Assembly: GCA_036498205.1 (NCBI GenBank)
Contig: DASXIC010000015.1
Span: 152-64,151, forward strand
Length of the DNA stretch: 64,000 nucleotides
Origin: Chthoniobacterales bacterium
GTDB taxonomy: Bacteria; Verrucomicrobiota; Verrucomicrobiia; Chthoniobacterales; UBA10450
Direction: 5' to 3'
In this document: piece after piece, positions 2,767-63,608 of the stretch
Layout: every line of letters begins with the position of its first letter
Numbering within the stretch: the stretch's first letter is position 1
Notes under the pieces: generated by a model
The model's input: the letters and a program-made list of their open reading frames with translations, nothing else
Databases searched by the model: none
What the model was told of the DNA's origin: nothing
Position numbers and translations under genes: made by a program

Positions 2767-4964
2767 CCAGCCTGCTCCCTGGCGAGGAGCTGGCATCGGC
2801 CGAGGTCCAGTTTTCCGGAGGCGAGTACTGGAATTTTATCCACGACGATTGCGCGCTTCGGTATCCAAAGATTCGGCACGCCTGCTTCGTTGAGCGAGCT
2901 GCGGAGGGCGTTCATATCAATCGGGTCGACGGTCAGGAGTAATAGCGCCTCACCTTTTGCTTCATCCGGCACGCCACAAATAGCTATTCGACGTTCGCTT
3001 CCGTCCAATCCTAAAGCTGCGATAGTTTTCTGCTCGACGAGCTCGTGCGGGACCATTTCGCCGCCAATTTTGGAAAAACGCGACAATCGCCCTTCAATGT
3101 AGAGGAACCCATCTTCATCCAAACGTCCGATATCGCCAGTCTTTAGCCATCCGTTTTGCAAAACCTCGCTTGTTCGCTTCGGGTCCTTTAAATAGCCTTC
3201 GAAGATGTTTGGTCCGCGAAGCCAAAGCATGCCGGTATCGTAGATCGTCAGCTTTTTGTCGGTTTCCGGGTCTCGAATCTCTGCTGCGATGCCGCTAGCC
3301 ATTTTTCCAACCGAGCCAAGCCGATAAAGCGGCTGAACAGTGACATCCGGTCGCTCCGGAATGGGATCTGGCAAATTGACCGAAACAACCGGCGTCGTCT
3401 CGGTCAATCCGTAGCCTTCGAAGACCCGTTTACCGAATCGGGCAAAGAATTTCTCGGAAAGATCCAGCGGCATTTTCTCGGCACCGACGATTACTAATCG
3501 AGCGGATTGTAACTGCTGGGGCTCGGCCTTACGCAGGTACGCGCGCAAGAAGGTCGATGTCGCCAGCATTACAGTGATTTTGTACTTCTCGACCAGGGCT
3601 GCATTCTTCGAGGTTTCGAGAGGGCTAGGGTAGGTAACGATCGGCGTGCCCTCAATCAGCGGATACCAGAGCGTGACGGTGCATCCGAAACTGTGAAAGA
3701 ACGGCAGCGACGCCAGGATGATATCGTCCGGTCCGGCATCGAGCATGACGGTGAATTGCGTCACATTGCTGACAATGTTGTGATGCGAAAGAATCACCCC
3801 TTTCGGCTCACCGGAACTGCCGCTCGTGAACAGCAATACCGCCTCTTCGTGTCCACCTTTGTCTGGTAAACCGAGCCAGTGGGACAAAAGCCTGTGCGGC
3901 AAGAGAAGGCTCGCGACCCACCAAAACAAAACTCTTGTCTTCAACTTCGGTAGCAATTCATCGAGTAAAACGATGTTCTGCGGCCACGGAAAATCTGGAA
4001 AGCGCGCACGGAATTGTGTTCCAGTGAGGGCGGTCTCAATTTCGGCCACTCCAATCGCGCTGGAAATCGCTTCCGTTGACGCGGTGAAATTCAGGCCGAC
4101 GGGAACCTTATTCGCAAGCACAACTCCCAGGTTCGCGACAACGGCTCCTTTTCCTGCCGGCAACACGATAGCGAGGCGCTTTTCCGGAAAATGTTTCCGA
4201 AGGTATCGACCGAGCGCGATCGACAAGGCAAGCAGTTTTCCGCGACTGAGCTTACTTCCATCCATTCCGTCGATGACAAGGATGGAAAAAGGAGAGCGTT
4301 TAAGCCCGCGAACCGCCCGGCGAGCGAGGTGCTCCCTCAATTCACGACGTTGCTCGAAGCAATCGGCTCCGATTTTCAGCAACTCCTCGTGAACGCGTGG
4401 GCTCGTCGCCTCTGGCGCGGTAAGTGCAGGACCGAACCCCACTGTCGCGCGATAGGGAAATTTGCGCGGCCATTTTCGAAAGAATCGGCCGCCGCGAAAT
4501 GAGAAGATCGAGCCCCAGAGTTGGTCGAGAAAAACAGGGACGACCGGCGCGCCGGCATGGCGCGCAATCATCTCGTATCCTCGTTGCAGTTTCTGCAAAG
4601 TACCGGTGCGTGATAATTGACCCTCGGGGAAAATGCAGACGATTTGACCAGCTTGAACTTGCGCCGCTGCGCGCCGGATCGCTTCACGCGGACGGGAGCG
4701 ACTGATCGGAATTGCTCGCGCCATCCGCAGGATCGGATTGAGAATCGGATTTCGGTAAAACTCCTCGTCGATAATGAAACGGATCGGCCGGGGGCAGCCG
4801 AGTTGAAGCACGATCGCGTCGACCCACGTGATATGGTTCGGCACGAGTAAACAACCGCCGGGCGGTAAGTTTTCCACGCTGATCGCCTTCACGCGATAGA
4901 CCAGCCGTACGAGTAGCAGGCTGAAGAAATAGAAGACCTGTTCGGCGGTGGAATCTCCCGGCAT
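2763..4964 (-). CDS. aas: Bifunctional lysophospholipid acyltransferase / acyl-ACP (AMP-forming) synthetase, Aas-like
   Basis: 733 aa. The N-terminal PlsC-type HX4D motif is present (PNHITWVDA). The C-terminal adenylate-forming domain carries LLFTSGSSGEPKGV, EGYGLTET and TGDIGRLDEDGFLYIEGR. The architecture matches E. coli Aas. Confidence 0.8.
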   Translation of the reverse strand: MPGDSTAEQVFYFFSLLLVRLVYRVKAISVENLPPGGCLLVPNHITWVDAIVLQLGCPRPIRFIIDEEFYRNPILNPILRMARAIPISRSRPREAIRRAAAQVQAGQIVCIFPEGQLSRTGTLQKLQRGYEMIARHAGAPVVPVFLDQLWGSIFSFRGGRFFRKWPRKFPYRATVGFGPALTAPEATSPRVHEELLKIGADCFEQRRELREHLARRAVRGLKRSPFSILVIDGMDGSKLSRGKLLALSIALGRYLRKHFPEKRLAIVLPAGKGAVVANLGVVLANKVPVGLNFTASTEAISSAIGVAEIETALTGTQFRARFPDFPWPQNIVLLDELLPKLKTRVLFWWVASLLLPHRLLSHWLGLPDKGGHEEAVLLFTSGSSGEPKGVILSHHNIVSNVTQFTVMLDAGPDDIILASLPFFHSFGCTVTLWYPLIEGTPIVTYPSPLETSKNAALVEKYKITVMLATSTFLRAYLRKAEPQQLQSARLVIVGAEKMPLDLSEKFFARFGKRVFEGYGLTETTPVVSVNLPDPIPERPDVTVQPLYRLGSVGKMASGIAAEIRDPETDKKLTIYDTGMLWLRGPNIFEGYLKDPKRTSEVLQNGWLKTGDIGRLDEDGFLYIEGRLSRFSKIGGEMVPHELVEQKTIAALGLDGSERRIAICGVPDEAKGEALLLLTVDPIDMNALRSSLNEAGVPNLWIPKRAIVVDKIPVLASGKLDLGRCQLLAREQAG

Positions 4965-51114: not shown

Positions 51115-51323
51115 GTAAATTATGGCGACGAGCAGGTCGCACTGTCGAACTTTGCACGCAATCGCTTTTCCCAGTGAGATTGCGTGGAAAAAATTCTTTG
51201 CAGGCCCAGCATTTATTCCTATATTGCGCGCTCTCCGCATCAGAGCGTGAGCACGGGTTCACGGCCTGAGCGGATTTTTTGTCGCCGGAACATAATCCTT
51301 CGCGGCGACTTGTTTGACCGGAA

Positions 51324-51734
51324 ATGCCAACCATTAATCAACTTGTGCGGAAAGGACGCCGGAAGGTGTCGGTGAAATCAAAGTCGCCGGCCCTGACCGA
51401 TTGTCCGCAGCGGCGTGGAGTGTGTGTGCAAGTAATGACACGCACCCCGAAGAAGCCGAATTCTGCCTTGCGCAAGGTGGCCAAGGTCAGGCTGACGAAT
51501 GGCCAGGAAGTGATCGCTTACATTCCGGGCGAGGGACACAATTTACAAGAACACTCGATTGTCCTGGTTCGCGGCGGTCGCGTGAAAGATTTGCCCGGTG
51601 TGCGTTATCATATCGTGCGGGGAACGCTCGACTCGCTTGGCGTTGATGGAAGGCGGCGTAGCCGCTCCAAGTACGGTGCAAAGCGGCCCAAAGCCGGCGG
51701 AGCCGAAGCGACCAAGGGAGGCGCCAAGAAATAG
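51324..51734 (+). CDS. rpsL: 30S ribosomal protein S12
   Basis: [12 protein letters not shown]...[11 protein letters not shown]...[13 protein letters not shown], with a ~12-aa basic C-terminal extension. Confidence 0.95.
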
Positions 51735-51736
51735 CC

Positions 51737-52210
51737 ATGTCGCGCCGCCGCAAAGTTTATAAAAAGGAAGAGAGAGTCGATTCCCGCTACGGAAGTCCGG
51801 CCGTGGCGCGTTTGATTTCTACTGTAATGAAGCGCGGTAAGAAATCGCTGGCGGAACGGATCGTCTATACCGCAATCGACAAATCTCGCGAAGGATCGGA
51901 CGCGGTTGATCCGCTCGAAGTTTTAAACAAGGCGCTGGAAAATGTGCGCCCTCGTCTCGAAGTAAAATCGCGCCGTGTTGGCGGTGCCACTTATCAGGTC
52001 CCCATGGAGGTGACGCCGGCGCGTCAGGTCTCGCTCGCGATGCGCTGGATCGTGCAGTACGCGGATAACCGTCGTGGTCAGCCGATGGCTGACGCACTCG
52101 CACAGGAGATCAAGGACGCGGCCGCGGGGCAGGGGAACGCGATTAAGAAGCGCGAAGACACCCACAAAATGGCGCAAGCCAATCGCGCGTTTGCGCATTT
52201 CCGCTGGTAA
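51737..52210 (+). CDS. rpsG: 30S ribosomal protein S7
   Basis: [13 protein letters not shown]...[11 protein letters not shown]...[10 protein letters not shown]. Confidence 0.95.
52179..52210 (+). repeat. Direct repeat copy 1 (3' end of rpsG including the stop codon)
   Basis: CCAATCGCGCGTTTGCGCATTTCCGCTGGTAA. It is repeated at 52382-52413 with 30 of 32 identical positions. Confidence 0.85.
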
Positions 52211-52248
52211 TGATGAATACCTTGCGCACTCACCAATTTTCTAACGTG

Positions 52249-52374
52249 GTCATCCTGAATCGCGTAGACGGCGAAGGATCTCGCGCTCGGAATTCGGTCA
52301 CGCATCCGACGGTTGGGTGTGCTGTCGATCCCGTGAGAGATTCTTCGACTTCGCTCCGCTCCGCTCAGAATGAC
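52249..52374. repeat. REPIN/MITE-like inverted-repeat element, copy C (in the rpsG-fusA spacer)
   Basis: Left arm GTCATCCTGAATCGCGTAGACGGCGAAGGATCTC. Right arm GAGATTCTTCGACTTCGCTCCGCTCCGCTCAGAATGAC, which is the reverse complement of the GTCATTCTGAGCGGAGCG... motif. Confidence 0.7.
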
Positions 52375-52381
52375 AGATGGT

Positions 52382-52413
52382 CCAATCGCGCGTTTGCGCA
52401 CTTTCGCTGGTAA
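52382..52413 (+). repeat. Direct repeat copy 2 (duplicate of the rpsG 3' end, non-coding)
   Basis: CCAATCGCGCGTTTGCGCACTTTCGCTGGTAA, ending 4 nt before the fusA ATG. Confidence 0.85.
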
Positions 52414-52417
52414 TTTT

Positions 52418-54595
52418 ATGGCGACCGCGACCATGGAAAAGAAACCAGCTTCTGCGAACCCGAACTCGCCGAACCGCAAATTCCCGCTGGAGCGGACGCG
52501 GAATATCGGAATTGCTGCGCACATCGACGCCGGCAAAACGACGCTAACCGAGCGTGTTCTCTTTTACACCGGCATGATTCACAAGATTGGCGAAGTGCAC
52601 GAAGGCACGACGGTGACCGACTGGATGGAGCAGGAGCGCGAGCGTGGCATCACGATCACCTCCGCGGCGACGACCTGCTCGTGGACGCAGCGCTCAGAGC
52701 CGGGCGTTTACAAAATGTTCGAAGGAATTAAACAGCGAATCAACATTATCGACACGCCGGGTCACGTTGATTTCACGGCGGAAGTAGAGCGCTCGTTGCG
52801 CGTGCTCGATGGCGCGATCGCGGTCTTCGATGCCGTTGCCGGTGTGCAGCCGCAATCGGAAACGGTCTGGAGGCAGGCAACAAAATACAATGTGCCGTGT
52901 CTTGCCTTCATCAACAAAATGGATCGCGTCGGCGCCGATTTTACGATGTCGATCGACAGCATGCGCAAGAAACTTGGTGCTAACGCGTGGCCGGTTCTGC
53001 TTCCGCTGGGCAAAGAAGATCAGTTCAAAGGCCAGATCGACGTTATTAATAAGAAAGCAATCATCTATTCCGACAGCGATCAGCTCGGATCGACGTATGA
53101 ACTTGCCGAGGTTCCAAAGGAATACGTTGATCTTGTCGAGAAGGCTTATCACGATCTGGTCGAGCAAATTTCAAATCTTGATGACCAAGTTGCGGAGGCT
53201 GTTCTCGAAGAAAAACCGATTACCCCGGAGCTGTTGAAAGCAGGCATTCGTCGTCAAACGATTGCGAACAAGTTTGTGCCGGTCATTGGCGGTTCGGCAC
53301 TCAAGAATAAAGGCGTGCAGTATCTGGTCGACGCAGTGGTCGATTACCTCCCAAGCCCTCTCGATATTCCGCCAGCCAAAGGAATGGATCCCGATACGCG
53401 CGAGCCGATGGAGGCGCCGACGGACGACAATGGAAAATTTTGTTCGCTCGCATTCAAACTTTGGAGCGATCCGTTTGTCGGCAAGCTCGTTTTCTTCCGC
53501 GTTTATTCCGGCACCCTGAGCAAAGGCGACACCGTTTACAATCCGCGGACGAACAAACGCGAGCGCATATCGCGTTTGATTCAAATTCAGGCGGACAAGC
53601 GCGAAGACATCGAGACCTGCTACTCAGGCGACATTGCGGCGATTGTGGGAATCAAAAACATCACTACTGGTGACACCCTTTGCGACGAGGACCATCCGAT
53701 TTTGCTCGAGCCCCCCTCGTTTCCTGATCCCGTTATTTCAATGGCGATTGAGCCGAAAACAAAGCTCGATCAAGAAAAAATGGGCGTCGCCCTGCAGCGC
53801 CTCGCGGAGGAAGATCCGACCTTCCGCGTTTATACGCATGAAGATACTGGTCAGACGATCATCGCCGGTATGGGCGAGCTGCATCTCGAAATCATTCGCG
53901 ACCGCATGTTCCGCGAATTCAAAGTGGACGCGAATGCGGGAAAACCGCAGATTGCCTATCGTGAAACGATCACGACGAACGCACACGGCGTAGGGAAGCT
54001 GATCAAGCAATCCGGCGGTCGCGGTCAGTATGGCCACGTTGAAGTCGATATGCGTCCCGGCGCTCGTAGCACAGGTTTGGTGGTCGAAAACAAAATCGTT
54101 GGCGGCGTTATTCCGCGCGAATACATCCCGGCAGTCAAGAAGGGGATCGAGGAGGCAATTCTCAACGGCGTGCTCGGCGGTTATCCGGTTGTCGATGTTG
54201 AGATCGACATCGTTTACGGGTCGTTTCACGAAGTCGATTCAAACGAGCTTGCGTTCAAACTCGCCGCGATCTTCGCCATGAAAGATGGCTTTAAACAGGG
54301 CAAACCCATTCTGCTCGAACCGATCATGAAGGTTGAAAACATCACGCCGGAGGAATCTCAGGGCGATATCATTGGCGATTTGAATCGGCGCCGCGCCCGG
54401 ATTAACAGCATTGAACCGCGCGGCAATCTTACCATCGTGCATGCCGAAGTGCCACTCGCCGAACTGTTTGGCTACGCCACCGCCATTCGCTCGCTTTCGA
54501 AAGGTCGCTCGAGTTACTCGATGGAACCATCCCATTTCGAGCAGGTGCCGCAGAACCTGGTCGCGGCGATCCTTGATCAGAAGGAGACGAAATGA
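52418..54595 (+). CDS. fusA: Elongation factor G
   Basis: [27 protein letters not shown]. The start is set at MATATMEKK (52418). It has a ~20-aa N-terminal extension relative to typical EF-G. Confidence 0.95.
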
Positions 54596-54903
54596 CGAAC
54601 GGCCAGCGTATTCGCATTCGATTAAAGGCATTCGATCATCGCATGCTCGATCAATCGGCGGTTGAGATTGTCGAGACTGCGAAACGCACCGGCGCACGCG
54701 TTGCCGGCCCGATCCCGTTGCCCACCTTGATCGAGAAGTTCACCGTGAATCGCTCTCCCCACGTCGATAAAAAATCGATGGATCAATTTGAAATTCGCAC
54801 CCACAAGCGATTGCTCGACATCATCGAGCCCACTGCAAAAACGGTCGACGAATTGAAGAAGTTGAACCTGCCGGCCGGCGTTGACATCACCATTAAAATT
54901 TAA
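54592..54903 (+). CDS. rpsJ: 30S ribosomal protein S10
   Basis: [18 protein letters not shown]...GPIPLPT...[13 protein letters not shown] overlap with fusA. Confidence 0.95.
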
Positions 54904-54942
54904 ACTCCGTCACTCTGAACGCAGCCAAGACAAATTTTGGAA

Positions 54943-55587
54943 ATGAGCATCGGTTTACTAGGACAAAAAATCGGCATGACCAGCGTCTACGACGCCAGTG
55001 GCAAGCTGCGTCCGGTAACCGTGATCGCAGCTGGTGACAATGTTTTGGTTCGGCGGTTGACCGCGGAACGAGATGGCTATTCCGCCGTGCAAGTCGGCTT
55101 TGGTACGCAAAAGGAGTCGCGCCTGAACAGCTCCGAAATCGGTTCGTTCAAGAAAGCGAACGTAGAGCCGAAGCGATTCATGCGCGAGTTTCGCCTCCAC
55201 GCCGACGCGCCGGAAGGGGAAGTGAATTTGAATGTCACTCAATTTCAGCCCGGGGACTTTGTCGATGTGATTGGCCGTTCCAAAGGAAAAGGTTTTCAGG
55301 GTGTGATGAAGAAGCACAACATGGCCGGCCAGGGCGCCGCGCACGGGTCGAAAACCCATCGTCGCAACGGCGCCGTCGGCAATCGTTCGACGCCGGGTCG
55401 GATCTGGAAAAATATGGGGATGCCTGGTCACCTCGGCGACGAGCGCGTGACGGTCCAGAATTTGCAAGTCATGCAGGTGCGGGAGACCGAGAAAATAATT
55501 CTGGTCAGCGGCGCCGTGCCGGGGGCGAACGGATCGCTGGTCGTGGTGCGTCCCGCGATCAAAAAGCCGGCGGAGGCAAAGAAGTAA
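54943..55587 (+). CDS. rplC: 50S ribosomal protein L3
   Basis: IGLLGQKIGMT...GKGFQGVMKKHN. Confidence 0.95.
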   Translation: MSIGLLGQKIGMTSVYDASGKLRPVTVIAAGDNVLVRRLTAERDGYSAVQVGFGTQKESRLNSSEIGSFKKANVEPKRFMREFRLHADAPEGEVNLNVTQFQPGDFVDVIGRSKGKGFQGVMKKHNMAGQGAAHGSKTHRRNGAVGNRSTPGRIWKNMGMPGHLGDERVTVQNLQVMQVRETEKIILVSGAVPGANGSLVVVRPAIKKPAEAKK

Positions 55588-56202
55588 GTGAGTGCGAAAG
55601 CTTTGAGCAAAGCAGCGGCGAAAGAAGCAAAAATTGCGCTTCTCGATGGCGGACGCGGCACCCAGGCCTTGCACGACGTGGTTGTAGCGATGCGCGCCGC
55701 GCGGCGTTCCGGCTCTGCCAACACCAAATCGAAAGCGGACGTGAACCTTTCCGGGGCAAAACCATGGCGGCAGAAAGGAACAGGCCGGGCCCGCGCGGGC
55801 TATAAATCGTCTCCCATCTGGCGTGGCGGCGGCGTCGTTTTTGGACCCAAGCCGCGCGATTACTCAAAGAAAGTTTCCAAATCAATGCGCCGCCTCGCCT
55901 TCCAAAAGGCATTGAGCGAGCGCATCAATGCTGGCGACGTCCTGACCATTGACACGTTCGCGGTCAAGGAACCGAAGACCAAATCGTTCGTTCAGTTAGT
56001 AAAAAAGCAAACCGACGCTCGCAAGGTGTTGATCATCTCGGATGCGTTCGATGACAATACCCACAAATCGGCCCGCAACGTGAAGCCGGTGCGGCTGGCG
56101 ACGGCGAACGATGTCAACGCCGAGCAAATTCTGGCATTTGAGAAAATTTTAGTGACGGAAAAAGCCCTTGAGACGCTGGCGCAGAGGACTAACGGGAAAT
56201 GA
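55588..56202 (+). CDS. rplD: 50S ribosomal protein L4
   Basis: KPWRQKGTGRARAG...SPIWRGGGVVFGP. GTG start. Confidence 0.9.
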   Translation: MSAKALSKAAAKEAKIALLDGGRGTQALHDVVVAMRAARRSGSANTKSKADVNLSGAKPWRQKGTGRARAGYKSSPIWRGGGVVFGPKPRDYSKKVSKSMRRLAFQKALSERINAGDVLTIDTFAVKEPKTKSFVQLVKKQTDARKVLIISDAFDDNTHKSARNVKPVRLATANDVNAEQILAFEKILVTEKALETLAQRTNGK

Positions 56203-56483
56203 ACGAACCTTTCGACATTATCCAGACAGCGTCGCTGACCGAGAAATCATCCTTGCTCGGAGAGAAGCAAAACAAATACGTCTTCCGAGTGAGGCCGCAT
56301 GCGAACAAAATTCAAATCAAGCAGGCGGTGGAGCGATTGTTTCAGAAGAAAGTGATCGACGTAAACACTTGCAATTATGCGGGCAAGAAAAAGCGGGAAC
56401 GCCGCGCGGATTTCGGCCGCAAGGCGCATTGGAAAAAAGCGATCGTGACGCTGAAGGAAGGCGACAAGATCGATCTGGTCTAA
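56199..56483 (+). CDS. rplW: 50S ribosomal protein L23
   Basis: [24 protein letters not shown]...KKAIVTL. Confidence 0.9.
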
Positions 56484-56487
56484 TTGT

Positions 56488-57327
56488 ATGGCGCTTAAAT
56501 CTTTTCGACCTCTGACACCGACTTTGCGTTTCAAGTCGCTTCCGGCTTTCGAGGAAGTGACCAGGGCGCGGCCGGCGAAAAGTCTGCTCGAGCCGAAGAA
56601 GAAGACCGGCGGCCGGAATCATTTCGGCCGGCTCACTTCGCGTCATATCGGCGGCGGACACAAACAACATTACCGCAAAATCGATTTCAAGCGGCGCAAG
56701 CGCGGTGTCGAAGCGGAAGTGCTCGGGATTGAGTACGACCCAAACCGCTCCGCCCGCATCGCCCTAATCAAGTACGTCGATGGTGAACTCAGTTATATCC
56801 TGGCGCCGGATGGGCTGCGGGTGGGCGCGCGTGTTGTCGCGGGCGACGAAGTCGCGCCGGACCTGGGCAATGCGCTTCCGCTGCGAGCGATCCCTCTCGG
56901 CACGAACATTCACAATATTGAACTGGCACCGGGTCGGGGCGGCCAGGTGGCGCGGAGCGCCGGCCAACAAGCCACTCTGAATAACCGCGAAGGTGGTTAT
57001 GGCTTAGTCAAAATGCCATCCGGGGAAATTCGGCGCATTCACGAGAGTTGTTACGCGACGGTCGGACAGGTTGGGAACGTGGATCATATGAATATTTCCA
57101 GCGGCAAGGCCGGCCGGACGCGCTGGCGAGGACGTCGTCCGCATGTGCGCGGCATGGTGATGAATCCGATCGATCATCCAATGGGCGGCGGGCAAGGCAA
57201 ATCCAAAGGCGGTGGTGGGCGTCACCATCCTGTCAGCCCGTGGGGGCAACTGGCGAAAGGATTCAAAACGCGTAGCAAACACAAACCGAGCGACCGTTTT
57301 ATCCTGGAGCGACGACCGAAGAAATAA
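56488..57327 (+). CDS. rplB: 50S ribosomal protein L2
   Basis: [23 protein letters not shown]; [15 protein letters not shown]. Confidence 0.95.
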
Positions 57328-57345
57328 CGCGACAATTTGACTTTT

Positions 57346-57624
57346 ATGGCCAGATCATTGAAAAAAGGACCCTTCGTCGAATCGCATCTTCTGGAGAAGA
57401 TCGACAAGATGAACAATTCGGGCGGGAAAAAACCAATTAAGACCTGGTCGCGCCGCTCGATGGTCACACCGGATTTTGTCGGTCATACTTTTCTCGTTCA
57501 CAACGGCAGGACGTTTAATTCCGTCTTCGTGACGGAAAATATGGTCGGCCATAAGCTCGGTGAATTTTCACCGACGCGGGTGTTTAAGAAGCACGGGTCG
57601 CACACGGCGAAGGTGACGAAATAG
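57346..57624 (+). CDS. rpsS: 30S ribosomal protein S19
   Basis: [11 protein letters not shown]...[22 protein letters not shown]...GHKLGEF. Confidence 0.95.
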
Positions 57625-58404
57625 TTGAGAAAATTTTTTGTAGTGTTGGGCTGCGTAACGCTGGCTCGAGGGCTGGCGGCAGAGGGAAATAGTTCTTTGT
57701 CAGATTCCAAAAATGAAGATGCGCCGGTCACGACGGCGGCGTTGCTCGCGCAAAACGAAGAGCTGCGCCGTGAGTTGTCGCTTAGCCGTGAGACGGTAGA
57801 GACGCTTACCAATAGTCTGGCTGAGTCCAATGCCGACGCGGAGGTATTCCGAAGGAAATTCACCGATTTGTCTTTGCGCATGGAAGCGCTTGGATTGGCC
57901 TCAGCCAGTAATGATCGCGCCAAGTTGGAGCAGCGGCTGCTCACGGCGGTGAGCGATCTGCAGCTGGCGCAGAAAGAACGCGACCAATATCGCGATCAAA
58001 TGATGCGTTTATCGGAAACGATGATGCGTTATTTGAAAACAACGGAGCCAGGTGACGCGGAGGCGAGAATGGAAGTGGAGGCGCAATTGCGTGGAACGAA
58101 CGCGCTGGCCCAGAACGCTTCGAATGCGCCGGCGCCGAGTCCTTCACTGCTCGATGGAAGCGTTATTAGCGTGAAAGAGGAGTGGTCATTTGTGGTGGGC
58201 AACTTCGGGGCACAACAGGGAGTAAAAATCGGAATGCCTTTGCGAGTGAAACGCGGTGATTCTGTCATCGCTAATTTGCGCGTAGTGGATGTGCGAGAGC
58301 GAATTTGCGGCGCTGTCGTCCAAGAAATGGGATCTGGAAAAGAGAAAATTAAGATCGGGGATCGGCTCGAAGTCGATGCCCGCCGGGATGTGAGTTTAAA
58401 ATAA
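57625..58404 (+). CDS. Signal-peptide / coiled-coil protein of unknown function embedded between rpsS and rplV
   Basis: A 259-aa ORF with a TTG start directly after the rpsS TAG and AAGGTG 9 nt upstream. Its TAA is directly followed by the rplV ATG. The N-terminus is MRKFFVVLGCVTLARGLAAEG. The central part is heptad-like and helical. The C-terminal ~80 aa look beta-rich (SVISVKEEWSFVVGNFGAQQGVKIGMPLRVKRGDSVIANLRVVDV...IKIGDRLEV). Confidence 0.6.
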   Translation: MRKFFVVLGCVTLARGLAAEGNSSLSDSKNEDAPVTTAALLAQNEELRRELSLSRETVETLTNSLAESNADAEVFRRKFTDLSLRMEALGLASASNDRAKLEQRLLTAVSDLQLAQKERDQYRDQMMRLSETMMRYLKTTEPGDAEARMEVEAQLRGTNALAQNASNAPAPSPSLLDGSVISVKEEWSFVVGNFGAQQGVKIGMPLRVKRGDSVIANLRVVDVRERICGAVVQEMGSGKEKIKIGDRLEVDARRDVSLK

Positions 58405-58875
58405 ATGGAAGTTCGATCGACATATCGTTACGCGAAGATTTCGCCGTTTAAGGTGCGCGAAGTCACACGCGAAATTCAAGGGCTGCCGGTCTCGGCAGCG
58501 CTCGATATCGTCGCGTTCAGTCCGAAAAAGGCAGCCACGCTTGTCGGCAAAACGCTCAAGAGCGCCGTTGCCAACGCGGAGAACAACGCCAACCTCAAAG
58601 TAGATGGACTGGTGGTAAGAGAGGCCGTTGTCGGCGAAGGACCGACGATGAAGCGAATGATGGCGCGCGCACGTGGGAGCGGCAGCCGCATTCTCAAACG
58701 GACAAGTCACATCAGAATCATTTTAACGGACGAGATAAAAATCGAGACGCGGGAGCAACGCAAAGCGGCAGAAAAAGCAGCGAAGAAAAAATTAAGCGAG
58801 CCTCGGGGAGAAAGCGGCGCAGCGGAAGGTGGAAGTAAGAAGCCGAGACGCGCGCTGAAGAAAGCGAAGAAGTAA
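58405..58875 (+). CDS. rplV: 50S ribosomal protein L22 with a Lys-rich C-terminal extension
   Basis: [18 protein letters not shown]...[10 protein letters not shown]...RILKRTSHI, followed by a ~45-aa basic tail. Confidence 0.95.
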
Positions 58876-58876
58876 A

Positions 58877-59563
58877 ATGGGACAGAAAGTTAATCCAATT
58901 GGGTTTCGGCTAAGCGTGAACCGCGACTGGCGGTCGCGCTGGTATGCTTCTCCGCAAGAGATGCCGGATTTTTTGCATAGCGACATCGAGATTCGGAACT
59001 ACGTGAAGAAAAAACTTCAGTTCGCGGCCGTCTCAAAGATCGTGATCGAGCGGGCTTGGAATTCCATTCGCGTCACAATTTTTACAGCCCGGCCCGGCAT
59101 CGTCATCGGACGCAAAGGGGCCGAGATCGAGAAGATGACTGAGGAAATTTCGAAGATGGCGCAGGGAAAACAGATCAAGATCGATATTCAGGAGATTAAA
59201 ACGCCGGAGCTCGATGCCCAGCTGGTGGCGGAAAACGTAGCGCTGCAAATCGAGCGCCGGATCGCCTATCGGCGCGCCATGAAAAAGGCGGTGCAAACGG
59301 CGATGGATTTCGGTGCGCTCGGGATTCGGTTGCGAAGCTCGGGGCGATTGAACGGGGCCGAAATTTCCCGTTCGGAATGGTATCGGGAAGGTAAAGTTCC
59401 GCTGCATACACTGCGAACCGGAATCGATTATGGATTCGCCGAAGCGAACACCGTCTACGGAAAGATCGGTGTGAAATGCTGGATTTGTAAAAAGGAGGAA
59501 GCCCCGCCTGAACCAACGACGCCGCTTGCTCCGCCACCGGCGCCGGCCGCTACTGGAATTTGA
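58877..59563 (+). CDS. rpsC: 30S ribosomal protein S3
   Basis: [12 protein letters not shown]...[21 protein letters not shown]. Confidence 0.95.
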
Positions 59564-59580
59564 TTTAGGGAGAGAACGTT

Positions 59581-60003
59581 ATGCCGTTGATGCCAAAAAG
59601 AGTGAAGTATCGCAAGTCGCAGCGGGGGAGCCGCAAGGGCACCGCTTCGCGCAATTTGCGGATCGATTTCGGCGAGTTTGGGCTGCAGACCCTGGAACGG
59701 GCCTGGATCACAAACACGCAAATCGAAGCGGCGCGGGTCGCATTGACACGTAGCATGAAGCGTAAAGGCAAACTCTGGATTCGCATCTTTCCGGACAAAT
59801 CGGTCACCGCTCGTCCGCCCGAAACGCGAATGGGTAAGGGAAAAGGGCAACCGGAATTTTGGGTTGCGACAGTGAAGCCGGGTAACATTTTGTTCGAACT
59901 GGACGGTGTGCCGGAGTCAGTCGCGCGCGAATCCCTTCGCCTGGCCGCGGACAAATTGCCGGTTCGAACCAAGTTCCTAACTCGCCATCACGTGGCTGCG
60001 TAA
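59581..60003 (+). CDS. rplP: 50S ribosomal protein L16
   Basis: [15 protein letters not shown]...RMGKGKG.PE.WVA.VKPG. Confidence 0.95.
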
Positions 60004-60007
60004 TGAG

Positions 60008-60214
60008 ATGAAAATCAAAGAAATTATTGAAATGAGCACAGACGAGCTTTTGACGAAAAAGCGCGATCTGCGCCAGGAGAGTTTGCATTTGCGGTTGCAG
60101 CAACAAAGTGGACAGCTTGAGCAGCCAAGCCGCCTGCGGTTGTTGCGTCGGGATGTGGCACGGATCGAGACGGTGCTTTCGTCACGAATGAATAAAGTGA
60201 ACGGGACGAAGTAG
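60008..60214 (+). CDS. rpmC: 50S ribosomal protein L29
   Basis: 68 aa. MKIKEIIEMSTDELLTKKRDLRQESLHLRLQQQSGQLEQPSRLRLLRRDVARIETV. Confidence 0.9.
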   Translation: MKIKEIIEMSTDELLTKKRDLRQESLHLRLQQQSGQLEQPSRLRLLRRDVARIETVLSSRMNKVNGTK

Positions 60215-60217
60215 TTT

Positions 60218-60496
60218 ATGGCGGAAACAACCGAAACACCTACCCTTGATCGCCGGGCTTCGCGAAAAACCCGTGTTGGCCAGGTGATAGCCAGCGGGAT
60301 GAATAAGACCATCGTGGTCCGAACCGTTACCCGTGTGCCGCACGCAAAGTTCGGCAAAATCGTAAAACAGCAAAAGAAATTCTACGCCCACGACGAGGAA
60401 AACAAAGCCAAGGAAGGCGATACCGTGCGCATTATGGAAACACGGCCCCTCAGCAAATTGAAACGGTGGCGACTGGTCGAGGTGATGGCGAAGTAA
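60218..60496 (+). CDS. rpsQ: 30S ribosomal protein S17
   Basis: GQVIASGMNKTIVVRTVTRVPHAKFGKIVKQQKKFYAHDEEN...GDTVRIMETRPLSK.KRW. Confidence 0.95.
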   Translation: MAETTETPTLDRRASRKTRVGQVIASGMNKTIVVRTVTRVPHAKFGKIVKQQKKFYAHDEENKAKEGDTVRIMETRPLSKLKRWRLVEVMAK

Positions 60497-60499
60497 TTT

Positions 60500-60865
60500 A
60501 TGGTGCAGATCCGATCCAGACTGGATGTCGCCGACAATACCGGCGCGCGCATGGCGACAATGATCGGCGTGATCGGGAAAGCTACGCTCTATGCTCGGAT
60601 CGGCGACGTAATTACCGCCAATGTAAAAGAGGCGAGCGCGACTGGGACGGTGAAAAAAGGCGAGGTGGTCCGCGCGGTTCTCGTCCGGACGAAACAACCG
60701 GTCAAACGGGATGACGGCTCGATTTTGCGATTCGACAACAATGCGATTGTCATCATCGATAAGGATCTGAATCCGCGAGGCACACGGATTTTCGGCCCCG
60801 TCGCACGTGAGCTGCGCGAGAAAAATTTCATGAAGATCGTGTCGCTTGCTCCCGAAGTGCTATGA
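60500..60865 (+). CDS. rplN: 50S ribosomal protein L14
   Basis: [10 protein letters not shown]...[11 protein letters not shown]...[10 protein letters not shown]...IRFD.NA. Confidence 0.95.
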
Positions 60866-61155
60866 ACCGGATTAAGTTTCACGTCAAAAAGGGCGACAAC
60901 GTTCAGGTTATCGCCGGCAACTACAAAGGTTCGAGCGGCAAGATTCTTCAGGTGCTGCCGAAGAAGGAGCGAGTGCTGATTGAAGGTGTGCGCATTATCA
61001 AGCGGCATCTGCGAAAATCGCAGGATAATCCCCAGGGAAAAATCGCGGAGAGAGAGGGTCCGATTCATATCTCGAATGTGCGAGTGATGGAACGAGAAGA
61101 GAAGAAGGCGAAGGCGCCGAAAAAGAAAGCCGCGGCCAAGGCCAAAGCAGCGTAG
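60862..61155 (+). CDS. rplX: 50S ribosomal protein L24
   Basis: [25 protein letters not shown] with KOW motif. It has a basic C-terminal tail. Confidence 0.9.
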
Positions 61156-61158
61156 CAG

Positions 61159-61731
61159 ATGGAGAACGAATTTTACAAAGAATACAAGGAACGTGTGATG
61201 CCGGCGCTGCAGAAACAGCATGGCTACAAAAACATGCACCAGGTTCCGAAGGTGGAGAAAGTTGTGATTAACTCCTCGGTCGGTTCGCAAGCGGACGTAA
61301 AGCAGGCCTTGGAGGACGCCAAGACCGAATTGGCTCTGATTACAGGCCAACGCGCTGCGGAAACGCGCGCAAAGAAAAGCATTTCCAATTTTAAATTGCG
61401 CAAAGACCAGGCCATTGGGGCGAAGGTGACGTTGCGGGGCGAGCGGATGTATGAATTCCTCGAGCGCCTCGTCAAAGCCGCGCTGCCGCGCATTCGCGAT
61501 TTCCGGGGAGTATCTCCGCGCGGGTTTGACGGCCACGGGAACTATACCCTGGGCGTTTCCGATCAATCCATTTTTCCCGAGGTCGAACTGGATAAAATCA
61601 AGCGCAACATCGGATTTGATGTTACTATTGTGACCACCGCTCGCACGAACGAAGAGGCCAAATCGCTCCTCAGCGAAATGGGAATGCCGTTCAGCGACCG
61701 CGCGAAAAAGCCGGCCGCGCAAGCTACCTAA
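61159..61731 (+). CDS. rplE: 50S ribosomal protein L5
   Basis: NMHQVPKVEKVVIN...ITGQRA...FRGVSPRGFDGHGNYTLG...FPE. Confidence 0.95.
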   Translation: MENEFYKEYKERVMPALQKQHGYKNMHQVPKVEKVVINSSVGSQADVKQALEDAKTELALITGQRAAETRAKKSISNFKLRKDQAIGAKVTLRGERMYEFLERLVKAALPRIRDFRGVSPRGFDGHGNYTLGVSDQSIFPEVELDKIKRNIGFDVTIVTTARTNEEAKSLLSEMGMPFSDRAKKPAAQAT

Positions 61732-61735
61732 TAGA

Positions 61736-62134
61736 ATGAGTACTGTAACTGATCCGATTGCCGATTTGCTTGCGCGGGTGCGTAACGGTGCGCGTGCGCA
61801 GAAGCCGGAAATGTTTGTGCCCTACTCGAAAATCAAAGCAGAAGTCGCGCGGATACTGAAGGACGAAGGTTACATTACCGACTACACGGTAGATACAGCG
61901 GCAACGCACCCACGGATCAAAATTACTAACAAACTAGTGAATCGCTCCAGCGCGATCACCGGGCTGAAGCGGGTAAGCCGGCCAGGGCTGCGGCGTTATG
62001 TCGGTGCGGAGGAGATTCCGCGGGTGCTCGGAGGAATGGGAATCGCCATTCTCTCGACTTCGCGTGGTGTGCTATCGGGCCGGGAAGCGAAAAAACAAAA
62101 CCTGGGCGGTGAGCTGCTCGCTTACGTTTGGTAG
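61736..62134 (+). CDS. rpsH: 30S ribosomal protein S8
   Basis: TDPIADLLARVRNG...ILKDEGYI...GIAILSTS.GV......GGE.L.YVW. Confidence 0.95.
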   Translation: MSTVTDPIADLLARVRNGARAQKPEMFVPYSKIKAEVARILKDEGYITDYTVDTAATHPRIKITNKLVNRSSAITGLKRVSRPGLRRYVGAEEIPRVLGGMGIAILSTSRGVLSGREAKKQNLGGELLAYVW

Positions 62135-62139
62135 GAGTT

Positions 62140-62679
62140 ATGTCTCGAATTGGAAATAAGACAATCGTGTTGCCGGAAAAGGTGAAGGTAAACGTCACAA
62201 ATGACGGAACCGTCGCGGTCGAAGGTCCGAAGGGGAAATTGAATTGGAAGCTTCCGCGCGATATTTCAGCAAAGATCGAGAACAATCATGTCTCGCTTGC
62301 ACGAGCTGCTGAAACCCGAAGCGTCAAGGCATTACACGGGCTATCGCGAGCGTTGCTCAATAATATGGTGCAGGGGGTGAGCCAGGGTTTCACCAAAAAC
62401 CTGGAAATTGAAGGGGTCGGCTTCAAGGCCGCAGTGCAGGGCCAGACCCTGAATCTGTCCCTCGGGTTTTCCCATCCAGTGCTTTTTCCGATTCCCAAGG
62501 AAATCAAAATAACGGTGGCGGAAAACACAAAGATCACCATCCAAGGAATCGACAAGAAATTGGTTGGCCAGGTCGCGGCCGACATTCGGCGGTATTACCC
62601 GCCGGAGCCTTACAAGGGAAAAGGCGTCCGTTATGCGGGCGAGCAGATTCGGCGCAAGGAAGGGAAGACAGTTCAATAG
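62140..62679 (+). CDS. rplF: 50S ribosomal protein L6
   Basis: [17 protein letters not shown]...[16 protein letters not shown] lies 3 nt upstream of the ATG at 62140. Confidence 0.95.
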
Positions 62680-62680
62680 T

Positions 62681-63037
62681 ATGCCGATCAATCGCAAAGC
62701 AACACGCCGGCGCATTCATCAGCGTATTCGGAAAAAAGTGAGCGGCACTGCCGAGCGTCCTCGACTGACGGTGCATTTTTCCGGACGCCACGTTTATGCC
62801 CAAGTAATCGACGATGACAGTGGGAAAACGCTCGCGGCAGCGTCGACTATGGAGGAACGGGCCGGCAAGAAAGCCGTGGCTAATCGCGAGACTGCGCAGC
62901 AAGTCGGCCAGGCGATTGCCGAGAAAATGCTCGCGCTAAAAGTAGAAAAAGTAGTGTTTGATCGCGGCGGCTTCATTTTTCACGGCAAAGTGAAAGCGTT
63001 GGCCGACGCCGCGCGGCAGGGCGGGCTAAAATTTTAA
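62681..63037 (+). CDS. rplR: 50S ribosomal protein L18
   Basis: [31 protein letters not shown]...[26 protein letters not shown]. The start is set at the ATG at 62681. Confidence 0.95.
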
Positions 63038-63038
63038 A

Positions 63039-63608
63039 ATGGCACCACCAAATACCAGACGACCCGAGCGCAACACCGACAAAACTGCCGCGGCGCGAGG
63101 CGACACGACTGAAAAAGTCGTGTTTATTAACCGGTGCGCCAAGGTGGTGAAGGGTGGCCGTCGTTTTAGCTTCAGCGCTCTCATTGTTGCGGGCGACCAC
63201 GACGGCAAGGTGGGCGTCGGTTTTGGCAAAGCTAACGAAGTCGCGGAAGCAATCCGCAAAGCTTCGGACGCGGCGCGCAAATCGATGGAGAAAGTTTCGC
63301 TGCATGAGAACACGATCCCGCACGAGACAATCGGCGAGTTCGGAGGGGGACGCGTCTTGTTGCGTCCGGCGTCACCTGGCACCGGCGTGATCGCGGGTGG
63401 CGGAGTGCGAGCGGTAGTGGAAGCGGCGGGAATTCGGGATGTGCTGGCCAAGTCGCTCGGATCGAGCAACCACGCGAACGTGGTTAAAGCGACGATTGAG
63501 GCCCTGCGAAATTTGCGACGGCGCGACGAAATTTTAAAAATGCGCGGAATCCGTTCGCACGTAAATGCGCCAGCGGATGGAAAGGTAAACGATGTTGCGG
63601 CTTCATAA
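63039..63608 (+). CDS. rpsE: 30S ribosomal protein S5
   Basis: [44 protein letters not shown]. Confidence 0.95.

Follow-up and report, generated by a model that had tools for sequence, protein, structure and literature searches.

Few gene junctions in bacteria are as stable as rpsS-rplV, which joins the genes for ribosomal proteins S19 and L22. What kind of gene, then, can lodge inside it and stay there? In a stretch of 64,000 nucleotides (nt) from a Chthoniobacterales bacterium (contig DASXIC010000015.1; the whole stretch is called the window below), a 780-nt open reading frame (ORF) on the + strand lies exactly between the S19 TAG and the L22 ATG. We call it X (positions 57625-58404); everything that a sequence-only reading had stated about the letters of this ORF was confirmed. 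The comparative data show that X is a real, conserved, non-ribosomal gene under purifying selection, and we think it probable that its product is a periplasmic envelope scaffold with a cleaved Sec signal peptide, co-transcribed with the ribosomal operon.

A word-indexed search returned 4215 homologues of X at E<=1e-3. An exhaustive search of 1.84 billion cluster representatives, clustered at 50% identity, returned 797, 366 and 88 clusters at E<=1e-3, 1e-10 and 1e-30, respectively, and the best 150 clusters are nearly all full-length proteins of 250-290 amino acids (aa). Compared with 16 relatives, X has a ratio of nonsynonymous to synonymous substitution rates (dN/dS) of 0.06-0.16, where synonymous divergence is close to saturated; for its neighbours L2, S19, L22 and S3 the same comparison gives 0.01-0.10. 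Codon adaptation, measured against a ribosomal-gene reference set, is 0.658 in the X frame vs 0.56-0.58 in the two other frames, with ribosomal genes at 0.66-0.80 and other long window genes mostly at 0.64-0.74; the codon usage of X is that of an ordinary gene. Its frame is unbroken in 61 of 62 species-representative genomes, and its length, domain order and specific residues are kept down to 25% identity. The sequence-only reading had proposed judging X by amino-acid conservation and dN/dS, by its frame in relatives and by its codon usage; on each of these measures X behaves as a conserved coding sequence and not as a frame-disrupted or non-coding spacer. At locus L062 (3001-3727, QHNU01000206.1), X is split by a frameshift, with ~10 codons lost around residue 120-130. 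Both halves are still 77-89% identical to the window protein, and the break is likely an assembly error, or else a very recent pseudogene.

The 62 genomes were recovered by a single-protein scan of species genomes that reached relatives of at least 61% identity; all are Chthoniobacterales or Udaeobacter, with X at 61-89% identity, and more distant homologues were looked up singly. The order L2-S19-X-L22-S3 is found in all 62 genomes, as far as the contigs reach. X stands in the ribosomal operon at all 73 loci, with S19 upstream at 68 of the 69 that have enough flank and L22 downstream at 72 of 72, which bears out the comparison of this junction among relatives that the sequence-only reading had called for. 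Nine distant homologues have X proteins of 27-35% identity and ribosomal proteins 42-77% identical to those of the window. Eight of them keep S19-X-L22, with 14-56 nt before X and 3-38 nt after it (at L070 there are 99 nt before X at the called start, which is probably truncated). In the ninth, L069, the operon is broken directly upstream of X, and X still sits 8 nt from rplV-rpsC-rplP-rpmC-rpsQ. At this locus (L069:3720-4800), X comes after an NlpC/P60 gene and 280 nt of non-coding leader, TTGCGT-N16-TATATT near 3762-3795 is a possible promoter, and unrelated genes follow the isolated X-to-rpsQ unit. Because X identity tracks the identity of the neighbouring ribosomal proteins (Spearman 0.78), the pattern fits vertical inheritance of X, which appears to evolve roughly three-fold faster than its ribosomal neighbours.

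All informative source labels of X homologues are verrucomicrobial (Chthoniobacterales, Ca. Udaeobacter, Chthoniobacter sp., 'Verrucomicrobiales bacterium' and 'Verrucomicrobiota bacterium'). Contigs L034, L039 and L048, as well as protein P0308, represent Udaeobacter-type operons in metagenome-assembled genomes labelled Alphaproteobacteria, Nitrospirota, Limnocylindria and Pyrinomonadaceae; S19 of these oddly labelled contigs is 95-96% identical to that of the window, and the operons are probably binning contaminants. Published gene tables place no X at the junction in three members of the phylum: the rpsS-rplV gap is 9 nt in Methylacidiphilum fumariolicum SolV (PMC3404531), and gaps of 120 nt in Opitutus terrae (249338-249457) and 148 nt in Xiphinematobacter (529153-529300) contain no gene (PMC4607532 Table S3). 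The insertion is therefore lineage-specific, as the sequence-only reading had offered as one possibility, and belongs to several Verrucomicrobiota lineages, not all. The long spacers of Opitutus terrae and Xiphinematobacter may be remnants of a deleted X. The simplest history would be one ancient insertion, inherited vertically in part of the Verrucomicrobiota and later lost in some lineages, for which a species tree is needed.

The N-terminus points to the envelope. By a heuristic scan, 95 of 104 full-length representatives have a strongly hydrophobic N-terminal 10-mer (mean Kyte-Doolittle >=1.6) with no acidic residue before it, and 98 of the 104 have a small-x-small site after the hydrophobic segment. 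The window protein reads MRK, FFVVLGCVTLA and RGLAA, the last followed by EG, against the type I pattern of a positively charged n-region, a hydrophobic h-region and small residues at -3 and -1. X is very likely a Sec substrate with a type I signal peptide, and the window protein is probably cut after LAA19. Of the two N-termini that the sequence-only reading had proposed, signal-like or lipoprotein-like, the signal peptide holds across the family and the lipoprotein version, weighed below, does not.

The mature protein (26 kDa, isoelectric point (pI) 5.3) is acidic. An AlphaFold2 model built from a 50-sequence alignment (25-67% identity) has a mean predicted local distance difference test score (pLDDT) of 82.5 and predicts three helices followed by a run of strands (Table 1). 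The helices span about 130 aa, close to the ~120 aa of heptad-like helix that had been read from the sequence, and hydrophobic residues occupy 67-75% of a/d heptad positions across them. In the turn between the first two helices, E87, G90 and L105 are near-invariant within a pattern RMEALGL...KLEQRLLxAVxDL. The length of helix 1 is close to that of helices 2 and 3 combined, and this turn is the best-conserved helical segment; on these grounds, which are lengths and conservation rather than coordinates, the model suggests an antiparallel hairpin with a functional tip.

The C-terminal domain is modelled as a small beta-barrel when taken alone (pLDDT 85.5, predicted template modelling score (pTM) 0.75), and G195, G203 and D246 are invariant in it across the 50 sequences. 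In a Foldseek search of the PDB, it matched FlgT (3w1e, template modelling (TM) score 0.65, root-mean-square deviation (rmsd) 3.1 A over 87 columns; 8z5n, TM 0.63), the N-terminal crown barrels of F1/V1 ATPases and EscN (TM 0.58-0.65) and MreC (2j5u). The structural models thus show a barrel of the FlgT-C/MreC/F1-ATPase-crown fold class, and the remote-homology search that had been suggested for this region supports the earlier likening of a beta-rich C-terminal domain to MreC-like barrels. At the sequence level, the Pfam family FlgT_C (PF16538) hits 24 of the 50 members at E<=0.1, the strongest at 7.5e-5, and does not match the window protein at E<=1; the homologue P0388 carries a precomputed PF16538 match, and TsaP gives a faint sequence match to the X family. 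No curated family covers the whole X protein, as Pfam, NCBIfam and PDB sequence searches gave coiled-coil noise only.

The proteins with which X shares this barrel differ from it in their other features. FlgT and TsaP are also periplasmic, have the same six-stranded barrel and carry a similar motif (...VVxNxGxxxGVxxGMP...) that gives weak hidden Markov model (HMM) matches. FlgT, however, has two further domains (an N, M, C architecture), lacks a coiled coil and is part of the H ring of the Vibrio flagellar basal body; TsaP carries a LysM domain and encircles the secretin of type IV pili. X has neither the further FlgT domains nor LysM and is not found in flagellar or pilus loci. The crown barrels of F1/V1-ATPase alpha/beta subunits and type III secretion system (T3SS) ATPases are the most numerous structural matches (rmsd about 3 A). 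Their role is purely structural, holding the ring together, and unlike X they reside in the cytoplasm, within large ATPase subunits; at the sequence level we detected no relationship between X and these domains. By defining features, X falls outside the FlgT, MreC and lipoprotein families and is an uncharacterised family of familiar modules.

Could X nonetheless be a divergent MreC-like morphogenetic scaffold, a membrane-anchored coiled coil and barrel whose task is to organise peptidoglycan synthases and whose gene was relocated to the ribosomal operon? We consider this unlikely. MreC has the same outline architecture of N-terminal hydrophobic segment, coiled coil and barrel type and, like the predicted X product, works in the periplasm, and besides the Foldseek match, which is to Listeria MreC, the Pfam MreC core (PF04085) gives sub-threshold hits in 4 of 50 members (best E 0.021) and NCBIfam MreC models (PRK13922) give weak ones in 7 of 50 (best E 6.2e-5). 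These matches lie far under family thresholds, however, and the window protein matches no MreC model. X has a single barrel of ~75 aa, the protein ending at residue 259, vs two in MreC; its N-termini look cleavable, not like signal anchors; and it never occurs with mreB or mreD in the loci examined, whereas MreC is encoded in an mreBCD context.

It is more improbable still that X is a lipoprotein tether akin to Braun's lipoprotein, that is, a very abundant protein lipidated at Cys10 that links the outer membrane to peptidoglycan or spaces the two. The lipobox-like VLGC of the window protein (L/I/F-V/L/I-G-C in close relatives) would suit this, as would the long coiled coil and a flush place in a highly expressed operon, which fits an abundant protein, and the coiled coil faintly matches Lpp (1kfm, E 0.013). 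That match is ordinary coiled-coil noise, however, and the cysteine is confined to a Udaeobacter-like subclade, with a lipobox-like pattern in 8 of 104 representatives. In the window protein, moreover, 5 hydrophobic residues before the cysteine are too few, and a second hydrophobic stretch and an AxA-type site follow it. As the cysteine is not conserved and the family has no conserved lipobox of the form [LVI][ASTVI][GAS]C, we rejected lipidation.

The location of X might instead suggest a factor, cytoplasmic or anchored in the inner membrane, whose target is the ribosome or the expression of the operon, such as a ribosome-associated protein or an autoregulator. In keeping with this, X occupies a near-invariant place between two ribosomal protein genes, stays with rplV even where the operon is split (L069), and shares its kind of operon with genes in which translation or secretion roles are common. 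We nevertheless regard such a role as very improbable: the mature protein is acidic, cleavage-type signal-peptide-like N-termini occur family-wide, Pfam and NCBIfam searches found no nucleic-acid-binding domain in X, and the proteins closest to it in fold either build rings or scaffolds in the periplasm or form the structural crown of ATPases. A ribosomal protein proper was rejected on the pI of 5.3, the signal peptide and the lack of any match to a ribosomal family model, in agreement with the earlier impression that the product is not ribosomal-looking. Finally, the idea that X is a non-functional spacer or hitch-hiking remnant, merely hard to delete from an essential operon, can appeal to its loss in Opitutus terrae, Methylacidiphilum and Xiphinematobacter and to the frameshift and small deletion of L062, but has almost no probability left against a dN/dS of about 0.1, the conservation described above and a likely assembly error at L062, and a non-coding or non-functional X is effectively refuted.

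We therefore return to X as a periplasmic envelope scaffold. The protein would be exported across the inner membrane via its cleavable Sec signal peptide and form an elongated coiled coil in the periplasm, probably an antiparallel hairpin ~8 nm long. The hairpin tip (EALG...LEQRLL) would present the best-conserved helical surface, and the FlgT-C/MreC-type barrel would be placed beside the mature N-terminus. A structural or scaffold component of the cell envelope seems most likely, rather than an enzyme or a ribosomal protein, because barrels of this type serve ring or lateral assembly in the envelope elsewhere. Where the signal peptide is cut, how the hairpin packs and what oligomer it forms are all inferred, as are co-transcription, coupled translation and the scaffold role.

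How might such a protein be expressed? The str, S10 and spc units are fused into a single gene string in the window, and a pattern scan found no promoter-like sites and no + strand terminator-like sites in 57300-58900; the + strand promoter-like sites of the string lie solely at 51197-51225 and 51582-51611. X would be transcribed within this fused operon and, since it has no transcription signals of its own here, its mRNA would rise and fall with ribosome synthesis, so that the proportionality to ribosome synthesis suggested by the sequence-only reading is a plausible consequence. Both junctions of X are flush in the window, and translation is probably coupled on both sides, with ribosomes that end S19 at its TAG restarting at the adjacent weak TTG and those that end X at its TAA restarting at the L22 ATG. 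X could then be very abundant because, if L22 synthesis needs ribosomes that finish X, translation of X would not be much below that of L22. A bolder extension, to which we give little credence, is that stop-start junctions chain X to S19 and L22 and yield it in ribosomal-protein-like amounts; X would then be among the most abundant periplasmic proteins, a structural spacer or tether supplied in step with ribosome output, and its co-translational export would hold the giant str-S10-spc mRNA at the inner membrane, with ribosomal-protein synthesis taking place beside the envelope.

The deposited annotation (VGH08_01240; P0001, 235 aa) begins at 57697, 24 codons later than 57625, and cuts off the signal peptide. 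We take 57625 as the start because 57697 would delete a family-wide signal peptide and because relative L016 has the same flush TAG/TTG and a similar N-terminus (MRKIFTVLGC...), with conservative codon changes. The Shine-Dalgarno-like AAGGTG does stand 9 nt upstream of the TTG, as had been pointed out; it is weak evidence for a dedicated ribosome-binding site, however, because it is part of the conserved S19 end and is also kept in relatives whose X start lies 15-100 nt further away.

The flush junctions are themselves the exception. That X fills its junction exactly, with no space left for a promoter or terminator, holds only for the window and L016; in most close relatives, 60-130 nt separate S19 from the conserved part of X, and about half have an X-L22 spacer of 86-117 nt; in about half, the X-L22 junction is TAAATG or an overlapping TAATG. 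The spacers fold as long imperfect hairpins in which tandem 7-8-nt units on one arm face complementary units on the other (for example GCAGATT, GTTGAGA and CCAATTG upstream of X, and GTTGAAG, GTTAAAA and GTTACAA downstream), with RNAfold z-scores of -1.6 to -6.9 in single-sequence folds of nine examples. The hairpin persists across species though the arm sequences differ. In several relatives, the sole plausible X start codon lies inside the upstream hairpin, and gene calls for X range from 250 to 282 aa, since callers run into the spacer. The window contains no such hairpin elements. Six related loci gave no Rfam match, and RNAalifold found no consensus on X-rplV spacers, where the repeat units make the alignment register ambiguous. 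The hairpins could throttle X translation or stabilise segments of the mRNA; palindromic repeat DNA is an equally good explanation. Since L001 has further inverted repeats in other operon spacers, such elements may be a general intergenic feature. The rplN-rplX junction of L001 (7639-7739) holds an inverted repeat of 45 nt (78% complementary) that runs over the called start of L24; that L24 is called as 127 aa vs 97 aa in the window.

Table 1 Coordinates of gene X, its parts and its surroundings (window positions unless a locus is named)
Feature	Position	Strand	Basis or remark
Uninterrupted gene string rpsL-rpsG-fusA-rpsJ-rplC-rplD-rplW-rplB-rpsS-X-rplV-rpsC-rplP-rpmC-rpsQ-rplN-rplX-rplE-rpsH-rplF-rplR-rpsE	51324..63608	+	ORF lists; presumed transcription unit
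rpsS (ribosomal protein S19)	57346..57624	+	upstream neighbour; stop TAG 57622-57624; Pfam PF00203, E 2e-37
AAGGTG, Shine-Dalgarno-like	57610..57615	+	9 nt 5' of TTG; within conserved S19 C-terminal codons (AKVTK*)
Gene X	57625..58404	+	259 codons; TTG start, TAA stop 58402-58404; predicted exported coiled coil with C-terminal beta-barrel
Signal peptide, residues 1-19 (MRKFFVVLGCVTLARGLAA)	57625..57681	+	probable signal-peptidase I site after LAA, placed by inference
Motif NSSLSDSK at predicted mature N-terminus	57688..57711	+	G/R/S-S-L-T/S-D/E in Chthoniobacterales-type members; alignment and N-terminal listing
Alternative TTG, start in deposited annotation (235-aa product)	57697..57699	+	P0001 begins MSDSKNED...; probably too far downstream
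Helix 1, residues 33-88, heptad-patterned	57721..57888	+	AlphaFold2 pLDDT 93-97; hydrophobic at 75% of a/d positions vs 41% overall
Helix 1/helix 2 turn with flanks (RMEALGL...KLEQRLLTAV), residues 86-107	57880..57945	+	best-conserved helical part; alignment
Helices 2 and 3, residues 98-139 and 145-166	57916..58122	+	AlphaFold2; combined length about that of helix 1
Six-stranded beta-barrel, residues 178-250, FlgT-C / MreC / F1-ATPase N-terminal type	58156..58374	+	AlphaFold2 model, pLDDT about 96
rplV (ribosomal protein L22)	58405..58875	+	ATG adjoins X TAA; Pfam PF00237, E 6e-36; Lys/Ala/Glu-rich C-terminal tail
Hairpin spacers of relatives	L001:3985-4075 and 4844-4946; L005:2911-3010; L006:3766-3876; also L019, L023, L026, L049, L066		flank X

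Expression data come from a possible counterpart of X in a cultured relative. In Akkermansia muciniphila MucT, a 'hypothetical protein', Amuc_0299 (UniProt B2UMT5), is encoded between S19 (Amuc_0300) and L22 (Amuc_0298) (PMC11480725, PMC6538878). Amuc_0299 is a positional counterpart of X and possibly a homologue. In one of these two studies, its RNA-seq counts of 10823 and 3342 lie in the range of its neighbours, and its log2 fold change of 2.07 compares with 2.05-2.59 for them.

Several observations weigh against a co-transcribed periplasmic scaffold. In the second of the two RNA-seq studies (PMC11480725, PMC6538878), Amuc_0299 changed 2-fold and its neighbours rose 7- to 41-fold, which argues for some independent control or differential mRNA stability, and co-regulation with the neighbours may not be strict. 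The part of the Akkermansia outer-membrane proteome table available to us lists the neighbouring ribosomal proteins and not Amuc_0299, and the portions of published supplementary tables that we consulted contained no proteomic evidence for it. The support for export is a heuristic sequence scan, and in the window protein Arg14 falls within an h-region that is itself short. The full-length model has a pTM of 0.42, which leaves helix packing and domain arrangement uncertain, and a FlgT-C-like barrel tells little about the partner of X. Finally, the lack of X in Opitutus terrae, Methylacidiphilum and Xiphinematobacter indicates that it is dispensable in some backgrounds.

The surrounding operon has some features of its own. 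In the window, there is no tuf between fusA and rpsJ, which overlap by 4 nt (54592-54595), and no rpsN (S14) between rplE and rpsH (61731-61736), where Opitutus terrae has rpsN. L22 is 156 aa long in the window, its Lys/Ala/Glu-rich tail spanning 58741-58875, and the length of this C-terminal extension varies by lineage: L22 lengths reach 170, 243 and 257 aa in relatives (L004:4831-5562, L068:4799-5572, L069:4798-5310), and the extension in L004 has a helix-hairpin-helix-like stretch (ISGVGPALEEKLHSFGIYQF). The window has no paralogue of X and no Rfam match except one tRNA at 1159-1230.

Non-ribosomal passenger genes are well known in ribosomal operons, with secY, adk, map and infA in spc and rpoA in alpha in E. 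coli and B. subtilis. X resembles them in being embedded without signals of its own, so that growth-rate-dependent transcription would be shared, and like X, secY is concerned with envelope and secretion. X differs in its site, which is new (the rpsS-rplV junction in the S10 part) and confined to part of one phylum, and in its nature: the known passengers are universal housekeeping factors, whereas X belongs to an uncharacterised family and is predicted to be exported, as a soluble or scaffold-type protein. In the literature searched, on signature proteins of the Planctomycetes-Verrucomicrobia-Chlamydiae (PVC) group, the verrucomicrobial S10 operon, insertions at rpsS-rplV, FlgT_C and Amuc_0299, we found no description of X; X is apparently a new, undescribed passenger at an exceptionally conserved junction.

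Several verrucomicrobial lineages have long retained a gene for an exported protein between rpsS and rplV, a rare kind of genomic change that could mark phylogeny. The insertion also amounts to a natural experiment in dosing a non-ribosomal product from a ribosomal operon, with a weak start and flush coupling in the window genome vs hairpin spacers elsewhere. More generally, X points to an uncharacterised, probably abundant envelope protein family in Udaeobacter and other Chthoniobacterales, soil bacteria that are dominant worldwide. Should Amuc_0299 belong to this family, its range extends to the cultivable and genetically tractable Akkermansia muciniphila, where these hypotheses would be directly testable.

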